Below are positions 3,884-3,916 of a stretch of DNA of 5,974 nt, piece after piece (within the stretch, counting starts at the first letter, position 1; each line of letters opens with the position of its first letter). The stretch comes from a virus (Duplodnaviria > Heunggongvirae > Uroviricota > Caudoviricetes). The notes under the pieces are model-generated. The model searched no databases, had not been told where the DNA came from, and was given only the letters and a program-made list of their open reading frames with translations. The position numbers and the translations under genes were made by a program. The DNA lies in IMG/VR virus record IMGVR_UViG_2711768068_000006; one strand, written 5' to 3'.

Positions 3884-3889
3884 CCTCCT
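3884..3889 (-). promoter_or_regulatory. Shine-Dalgarno (AGGAGG) for the protease-capsid ORF
   Basis: Minus strand reads CAGGAGGCTGAT-GTG, giving 5-nt spacing to the GTG start at 3878. Confidence 0.7.
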
Positions 3890-3916
3890 GAAAATAAAAA
3901 AACCGCCGGAGCGGTT
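3889..3916 (-). terminator. Intrinsic-terminator-like hairpin plus U-tract between terL stop and the capsid-gene ribosome-binding site (oriented with the minus-strand operon)
   Basis: Minus strand reads ...CACG AACCGC TCCG GCGGTT TTTTTATTTT CAGGAGG...: a perfect 6-bp stem with a 4-nt loop, followed directly by a 10-nt T-rich run. On the plus strand the same hairpin has no downstream T-tract, so it is directional. The stem is short, so strength is uncertain. Confidence 0.4.

Follow-up and report, generated by a model that had tools for sequence, protein, structure and literature searches.

A terminator-like hairpin directly upstream of the capsid gene in the late operon of a Shiga-toxin-type lambdoid prophage

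Why should a transcript that has to reach the capsid gene of a phage run through a terminator-like hairpin immediately in front of that gene? The window analysed here (the whole stretch of DNA, 5,974 nucleotides (nt) in length) raises this question at the junction between the terminase gene terL and a capsid gene, where a preliminary description had placed such a hairpin. We re-read the stem, the loop, the tail and the AGGAGG motif beyond it, and found both the coordinates and the description to be exact. What had been missed is a larger pattern: the hairpin is one half of a pair that brackets the capsid gene, a pattern that is already annotated in the records of phages HK97 and P22. The features of the window on which the argument draws are listed below.

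3942..5555, minus strand: terL, 537 amino acids (Pfam TerL_ATPase and TerL_nuclease; list of open reading frames (ORFs))
3918..3941, minus strand: variable 24-nt spacer from the terL stop to the hairpin (sequence comparison)
3900..3917, minus strand: putative terminator hairpin, G-AACCGC (3917-3911), UCCG (3910-3907) and GCGGTT-T (3906-3900) (folding, scan and covariation)
3891..3902, minus strand: U-tract T7-A-T4, of which the first two Ts are also stem bases (sequence, scan and homologues)
3876..3889, minus strand: capsid initiation region, AGGAGG (3889-3884), 5-nt spacer and GTG (3878-3876) (sequence and ORF list)
1941..3878, minus strand: prohead protease–major capsid fusion, 645 amino acids (Peptidase_S78, residues 48-152; Phage_capsid, residues 386-635; homologues)
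1905..1926, minus strand: downstream 9-bp G+C-rich hairpin, ACGGGAGGC-GUGC-GCCUCCCGU, with no U-tract (folding and relatives)

Anatomy, direction and chance expectation

Read along the minus strand, the terL stop codon (TAA, 3944-3942) is followed by the 24-nt spacer, the stem arm AACCGC (3916-3911), the loop TCCG (3910-3907) and the second arm GCGGTT (3906-3901). The six pairs are perfect and four of them are G-C, the tetraloop UCCG is of the UNCG type, and G3917 and T3900 are able to extend the stem by one G.U pair. The tail after the stem is TTTTTATTTT (3900-3891); with the two stem Ts included, the run consists of seven consecutive Ts, an A and four more Ts. UUUUUAUUUU stands directly 3' of the stem, where the U-tract of an intrinsic terminator is found (a tract of ~7-9 nt that starts at the stem end). 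The hairpin sits in a 63-nt intergenic gap, outside coding sequence and on the strand of the terL and capsid genes. Its GC-rich stem-loop falls within the range of intrinsic terminators (a stem of ~5-14 bp and a loop of 3-8 on the transcribed strand), at the short, weak end of that range.

The hairpin does abut the capsid ribosome-binding site, as had been described: a single C separates the tail from AGGAGG (3889-3884), after which come CTGAT and GTG (3878-3876), the start of the 645-amino-acid ORF in which Peptidase_S78 and Phage_capsid are fused. Only 22 nt lie between the stem and this start codon. An out-of-frame ATG-TGA pair on the minus strand (ATG 3880-3878, TGA 3877-3875) overlaps the capsid GTG.

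RNAfold assigns the 28-nt stretch −9.1 kcal/mol (z = −3.5; 2 of 200 shuffles fold equally well), or −10.9 kcal/mol with the flanking G.U pair, in either case beyond the −5 kcal/mol that the preliminary description had set as the limit for a fold too weak to matter. The plus-strand version of the hairpin is weaker (−7.4 kcal/mol) and runs into CGTGATGG, which contains no U-tract; the terL–capsid hairpin is therefore directional. Within the spacer, no alternative antiterminator fold was supported, and longer folds were indistinguishable from those of shuffled sequences (z = −1.1 and −0.2).

Such a structure is rarely expected by chance. The strict motif that we searched for (a mismatch-free stem of 6 bp or longer that includes four or more G/C, a loop of 3-8 and at least eight Ts in the next 10 positions) has a single occurrence in the window, which is the terL–capsid hairpin, and among 3,000 dinucleotide-preserving shuffles only 11 contained any such motif on either strand (mean of 0.005 per window). 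In a looser consensus terminator scan, the hairpin ranked first of five hits and was the one hit lying wholly between genes on the gene strand. A consensus scan for sigma-70-like promoters returned none in the whole window, against 2.5 expected. Because there is neither a promoter nor room for one between the hairpin and the start codon, expression of the capsid gene would need read-through, which is what the preliminary description had argued.

A Shiga-toxin-type late operon

The three large minus-strand ORFs of the window encode TerL, the 645-amino-acid protease–capsid fusion and a Phage_portal protein. Over its full length, the window shares 98% identity with Enterobacteria phage 2851 (Pankowvirus), and likewise with many Stx1- and Stx2-converting phages; judged by its sequence, it represents the head module of a lambdoid Stx prophage of the Pankowvirus type. 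We found the terL–capsid junction in 1,252 of the 5,426 complete Escherichia coli genomes searched, with up to seven copies per genome.

Phage 2851 carries on one strand, in this order, Q, tRNAs, stx2, the lysis genes, HNH, terS, terL, the capsid gene, the portal gene and the tail genes, which by its arrangement is a classical lambdoid late operon. In our copy of this genome (L001), Q occupies 662-1150 and the capsid gene is at 12323, placing Q ~11 kb upstream on the same strand. The window itself contains no Q. Among the relatives, the loci of which were examined with 10-kb flanks, a Q-family gene heads a collinear lysis–terminase–head cluster on the same strand in Salmonella (PF03589), Serratia (PF06530) and Pantoea (PF06530); no recognisable Q lies within 10 kb in the Yokenella and Klebsiella loci. 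The position of Q in phage 2851 and in these three relatives agrees with the earlier proposal of a late operon transcribed by antiterminated polymerase.

The comparison with phage 2851 also showed differences elsewhere in the window. Measured against the corresponding part of 2851, the window comes out 49 nt shorter, 48 nt through a deletion in terL and 1 nt elsewhere. The terL deletion is in-frame, lies just 5' of the nuclease-domain VGIDGGG motif and removes 16 residues that are present in the 2851 protein (FMSKHA[NVEIGLALRSDRWAGA]DFWEQQ); a prophage terminase with this 16-amino-acid deletion may be impaired. The portal ORF (365-1729) is 454 amino acids in length in the window and ~450 in relatives, compared with 859 in the RefSeq annotation of phage 2851 (L001 14472-17051), a mismatch that suggests a frameshift or a fusion annotation in the window or in the 2851 record.

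Conservation of the hairpin among relatives

We compared 28 genomic loci that encode relatives of the capsid fusion, together with 80 close viral contigs. The hairpin occupies this position in 17 genera or lineages of Enterobacterales (including Enterobacter, Kluyvera, Citrobacter, Buttiauxella, Kosakonia, Phytobacter, Pantoea, Erwinia, Rouxiella, Proteus, Arsenophonus and Phlomobacter) and in one Diaphorobacter locus. In the Enterobacterales relatives, the capsid identities of which are 52-77%, it has the form (A/G)ACCCGC-loop-GCGGGT, followed by T5-6 and then by CGTTTC(A/T)GGAG. At least five Ts directly follow the stem in nearly all Enterobacterales homologues; the exceptions are E. coli A34, in which one extra G comes first, and a Serratia relative with four Ts only. 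GGAG is kept at a fixed distance from the hairpin in the relatives, and the capsid GTG of the window aligns with their ATG (MTLK...).

Between the terL stop and the hairpin, the spacer measures from 1 to ~50 nt (1-3 nt in Proteus and Phlomobacter), and its sequence is wholly different between E. coli lineages and between genera. The loops that we observed are UCCG, UGCG, GCAU, UUCG, CACG, CUCG, CGCG, UCAG and AAU, several of which are of the UNCG type. This free variation is compatible with a terminator and speaks against an operator at which a protein recognises the loop, a candidate that we set aside on these grounds. The stem changes in a different manner. The E. coli lineage has an A-U pair where other relatives have C-G, which is a compensatory double change; in a 23-sequence alignment of diverse homologues, 91.9% of cells are paired (35-55% in slid controls), three of the seven stem pairs have changed on both sides and the covariation score was reached by none of 500 shuffles. 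Structure rather than sequence is thus kept across the homologues, as in intrinsic terminators. In the 80 close E. coli copies, the variants comprise a C-to-G change in the loop, an A-to-G change in the stem (giving G.U) and a T-run of 6-8, none of which breaks the structure. A d-score, which is a heuristic of the d'Aubenton-Carafa type, was positive in 24 of 26 homologues and analogues.

These data bear on whether the hairpin is under selection at all. It could be a chance inverted repeat, or a 'linker' kept as a point of mosaic crossover, and the comparison between E. coli A34 (L002 3259-3349) and the window (3941-3879) offers some encouragement for the second possibility: DNA similarity stops exactly at the terL stop and restarts only at the 3' arm of the hairpin, the T-tract and the Shine–Dalgarno (SD) sequence, which places the hairpin at a mosaic junction. 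A hairpin without selected function is nevertheless highly improbable. The chance expectation given above is very low, the structure is kept through sequence change while loops and spacers drift, and non-homologous, analogous hairpins occupy the equivalent position in lambda and HK97 (see below).

Beyond the Enterobacterales, Pseudomonas phage PAJU2 (48% identity) has the hairpin AGCCCGC-CUAGA-GCGGGCU with a degraded U-tract (UUUCUCGUUUC); that the hairpin is retained there hints at a value that is independent of termination. Moraxella phage Mcat5 has a hairpin with U5 upstream of its protease gene, and the upstream neighbour is a hypothetical gene, not terL. No hairpin was found in Burkholderia FUBS1, Stenotrophomonas SOVA965 or six alphaproteobacterial capsid relatives; in these relatives the upstream gene abuts or overlaps the capsid/protease gene.

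Hairpins that bracket capsid and tail genes

The downstream hairpin of the window (1926-1905) lies 15 nt past the capsid stop and is predicted to be highly stable (−18.2 kcal/mol, z = −3.65). Most relatives, and phage PAJU2, have a stable hairpin at this post-capsid position, with differing stems and loops. Hairpins 3917-3900 and 1926-1905 flank the capsid gene in the pattern of HK97, lambda and P22.

The surroundings of the downstream hairpin have a further peculiarity. It is preceded by an SD-like AAGGAGG (1933-1927) and followed by the ATG (1896-1894) of a 73-amino-acid ORF (1675..1896, minus strand), the first codons of which are conserved in relatives. The distance from AAGGAGG to this ATG is 30 nt in the linear sequence but would be ~8 nt if the hairpin formed, and the layout GGAGG-hairpin-N8-10-ATG recurs in most Enterobacterales relatives. 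The region resembles the split ribosome-binding sites of T4 genes 38 and 25.

In the HK97 record (NC_002167), four features labelled 'terminator, putative' are relevant. Two of them enclose the genes for the gp4 protease and the gp5 capsid protein, one on the upstream side (3309-3335) and one past gp5 (5192-5213); the other two lie on either side of the major tail gene, at 6692-6719 upstream and 7443-7462 downstream.

As in the window, a GC hairpin with a U-rich tail stands just 5' of the HK97 protease and capsid genes, within a Q-dependent late operon that has no internal promoter, and a second hairpin follows the capsid gene. HK97 differs in that portal, not terL, is the upstream gene and in that protease and capsid are encoded separately; moreover, its putative hairpin before the protease gene has another sequence and an interrupted U-tract (UUAAUUUUUA). 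The putative HK97 element before the major tail gene, GAACCCGCC-AGAU-GGCGGGUUUUCUUUUUCCAGGAG, is near-identical in design and partly identical in sequence to the window hairpin.

In lambda, the hairpin GGCCGC-CUGU-GCGGCU with U6-7 is found between D and E (6100-6115); it begins 35 nt before the start of the capsid gene E and lies 20 nt 5' of it, in a Q-antiterminated late operon, and a second stable hairpin (7164-7179) directly follows E. However, lambda has unrelated head genes, among which E is no fusion of the HK97 type, and the ribosome-binding context has a second U7 run and no AGGAGG. The 7-nt gap between U and the major tail gene V contains no such hairpin.

The P22 record annotates a stem_loop (6102-6119) after coat gene 5 as 'similar in location to stem-loops in phage HK97 and phage lambda'. 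P22-like phages also have predicted terminators within a late operon that is antiterminated and served by a single promoter, and in phage L one of these ends the procapsid module. These elements are downstream of the coat gene, not upstream, and are therefore the counterpart of the window hairpin at 1926-1905 rather than of that at 3917-3900. The phage L genome paper states that terminators inside late operons are common and that their roles are unknown, and suggests either partial termination or the stopping of transcription that lacks antitermination. Our literature search on hairpins that flank capsid genes, or on lambda late 3' ends, found nothing useful.

Another relevant comparison is tR' of lambdoid and Stx phages, the source of 6S RNA/StxS and an intrinsic terminator that is obeyed by unmodified polymerase and read through by Q-modified polymerase. 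It differs in being just downstream of pR' and in having a defined terminated product, StxS, with a demonstrated regulatory role; the window hairpin, a putative terminator, lies ~11 kb further down.

When the late strand of phage 2851 was scanned, a second cassette of hairpin, U-tract and SD sequence appeared directly 5' of the major tail gene (CCCGC-CGCGU-GCGGG followed by UUUUUUAUUAUCAGGAGG). Two Salmonella loci, a Serratia locus and a Klebsiella locus have a pre-tail cassette at the equivalent position, with stems that differ by genus; L119 and L120, two relatives whose tail tube belongs to another family, lack it. The pre-tail cassettes are located as follows.

L001 (phage 2851), 18553-18592
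L111, 16027-16065
L112, ~16025-16066
L113, 16209-16251
L121, ~16375-16416

The gene upstream of such hairpins is terL in the window, portal in HK97, D in lambda and a hypothetical gene in Mcat5. Because the downstream gene for an abundant protein is constant and the upstream gene varies, the hairpin belongs functionally with the capsid gene.

This partnership raises the possibility that the hairpin mainly serves expression of the capsid gene at the RNA level and that termination is incidental, a proposal that would be compatible with a terminator. After endonucleolytic cuts, the upstream hairpin would shield the message against 5'-end-dependent RNase E and the downstream hairpin would block 3' exonucleases, and the U-rich tract would recruit ribosomal protein S1 or act as a standby site, raising translation of the protein that is required in the largest number of copies. 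These roles of S1 and of RNase E scanning are general background, proposed here for the capsid message. Several of the observations above are in keeping with this: the two conserved hairpins around the capsid gene, the like brackets at HK97 gp4-5, the HK97 major tail gene and lambda E (and, on the downstream side, at P22 gene 5), the constancy of the downstream gene whatever lies upstream, the cassette before the major tail gene, and the PAJU2 hairpin that is retained with a degraded U-tract. In addition, the distance from stem to start codon is nearly constant across elements, at 24-25 nt; this tight spacing between hairpin and SD sequence may merely reflect genome compaction. We nevertheless consider a mainly RNA-level role to be rather unlikely. 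At least five Us exactly at the 3' end of the stem are specific to terminators and unneeded for protection, yet they are conserved in the Enterobacterales, and the downstream hairpin mostly lacks a U-tract, which indicates that the two hairpins are not equivalent.

The terminase message and small RNAs

A hairpin at the end of terL might instead serve the message upstream of it, as a partial terminator or 3'-end former: by attenuation, by giving the terS–terL message a stable 3' end, or by generating an Hfq-binding small RNA (sRNA) from the 3' part of terL. A terminator hairpin with a U-tail is the standard module for Hfq binding and 3' protection, many prophage sRNAs exist in enterohaemorrhagic E. 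coli (EHEC), and the window has a weak resemblance to the isrK model of Rfam (RF01394). We rejected isrK itself, as the score of 18.1 bits (E = 1.6 for the whole window) is below the gathering threshold of 50 bits. The best-aligned part is the terminator hairpin with its U-tail, and the score of 18 bits comes mostly from this generic structure, plus a weak 5' stem in terL. That stem is formed by a second, weak inverted repeat in the last codons of terL (AACCG-N16-CGGTT followed by T7, 3945-3976, minus strand), which copies the terminator motif GCGGTTTTTTT and is aligned by the isrK model as its 5' stem.

HnrS (EcOnc10-12) was the other sRNA considered, and it was rejected as the identity of the window hairpin. 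Its 15-nt seed, complementary to mazF, is absent from the window with three or fewer mismatches allowed. HnrS is a published 66-nt, multicopy sRNA of EHEC prophages with its own start site and 15 nt of perfect complementarity to the 3' end of mazF; like the window hairpin, it lies in the late region of prophages, and an intrinsic terminator forms its 3' end. In phage 2851, its match is ~3.3 kb upstream of the hairpin on the opposite strand, with the terminator at L001 8978-8954. HnrS apparently occupies L001 ~8954-8993 (minus strand), between the KilA-N cluster and HNH/terS and antisense to the late operon.

We regard a role for the hairpin in the terminase message as improbable. Attenuation that set dosage was put aside because it would leave less capsid mRNA per terminase mRNA, whereas a virion needs the reverse stoichiometry. 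Elsewhere the gene before the hairpin is portal, D or a hypothetical gene, the isrK score is low and the known late-region sRNA maps elsewhere, on the other strand. The text of Tree et al. (2014), on EHEC Hfq-CLIP, does not mention terminase or capsid loci. The suggestion in the preliminary description that the hairpin was selected to form a stable 3' end for a terS–terL message is accordingly disfavoured, as the constant neighbour is the downstream capsid/protease gene, not terL. A cos or pac site was set aside on general grounds: in phages with the order HNH–terS–terL, the packaging site is usually upstream of terS.

A proposed conditional terminator in front of the capsid gene

Taken on sequence grounds, the hairpin is probably a canonical intrinsic (Rho-independent) terminator within a Q-antiterminated late operon, where it brackets the capsid gene on the upstream side. 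Features of this kind are already recognised in lambdoid late operons; the window hairpin adds a previously unannotated example, not a new type of element. We infer that it terminates transcription, that Q-modified polymerase reads through it and that the capsid gene benefits from the insulation; read-through follows from the need for capsid to be expressed and from the known processivity of Q-modified polymerase.

On this conditional-terminator model, polymerase that was not loaded with Q at the late promoter would be released at the U-tract. Such unmodified polymerases could arise in the lysogen from leaky read-through, from spurious starts or from the promoters of accessory genes (morons), and the strongly translated capsid gene would thereby stay silent. 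During lytic growth, Q-modified polymerase would ignore the hairpin and enter the promoterless capsid gene. On the read-through mRNA, the hairpin would remain as a bracket at the 5' side of the capsid cistron, matched by the hairpin after the stop codon, and the U-tract would provide an unstructured, U-rich leader right before a strong SD sequence. A stem this short (6-7 bp, −9 to −11 kcal/mol) may terminate only a fraction of transcripts.

A broader reading of the same elements is that hairpin, U-tract and SD sequence form a portable, dual-purpose 'abundant-gene cassette', which would travel through phage mosaics with major capsid and tail genes, act as a last-line terminator in the lysogen and, in lytic growth, mark out a stabilised and highly translated segment. 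We consider this reading unlikely. If it were true, the cassette would block leaky synthesis of capsid and tail-tube proteins in the lysogen, which is costly and could trip host defence sensors, and would, together with the downstream hairpin, set virion stoichiometry within a single transcript.

The hairpin reveals no new mechanism. Because the region that contains it occurs in 1,252 of 5,426 E. coli genomes and in numerous Stx1 and Stx2 phages, it marks a very common, putative point of control over virion production in Shiga-toxin phages. Should it terminate transcription as predicted, it would help to explain how capsid genes remain silent in lysogens despite a late promoter that is constitutively active. 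Mutations in the stem and in the U-tract would provide a simple handle on a question that dates from the annotation of the HK97 record, namely why terminator-like hairpins flank the major head and tail genes in antiterminated operons.
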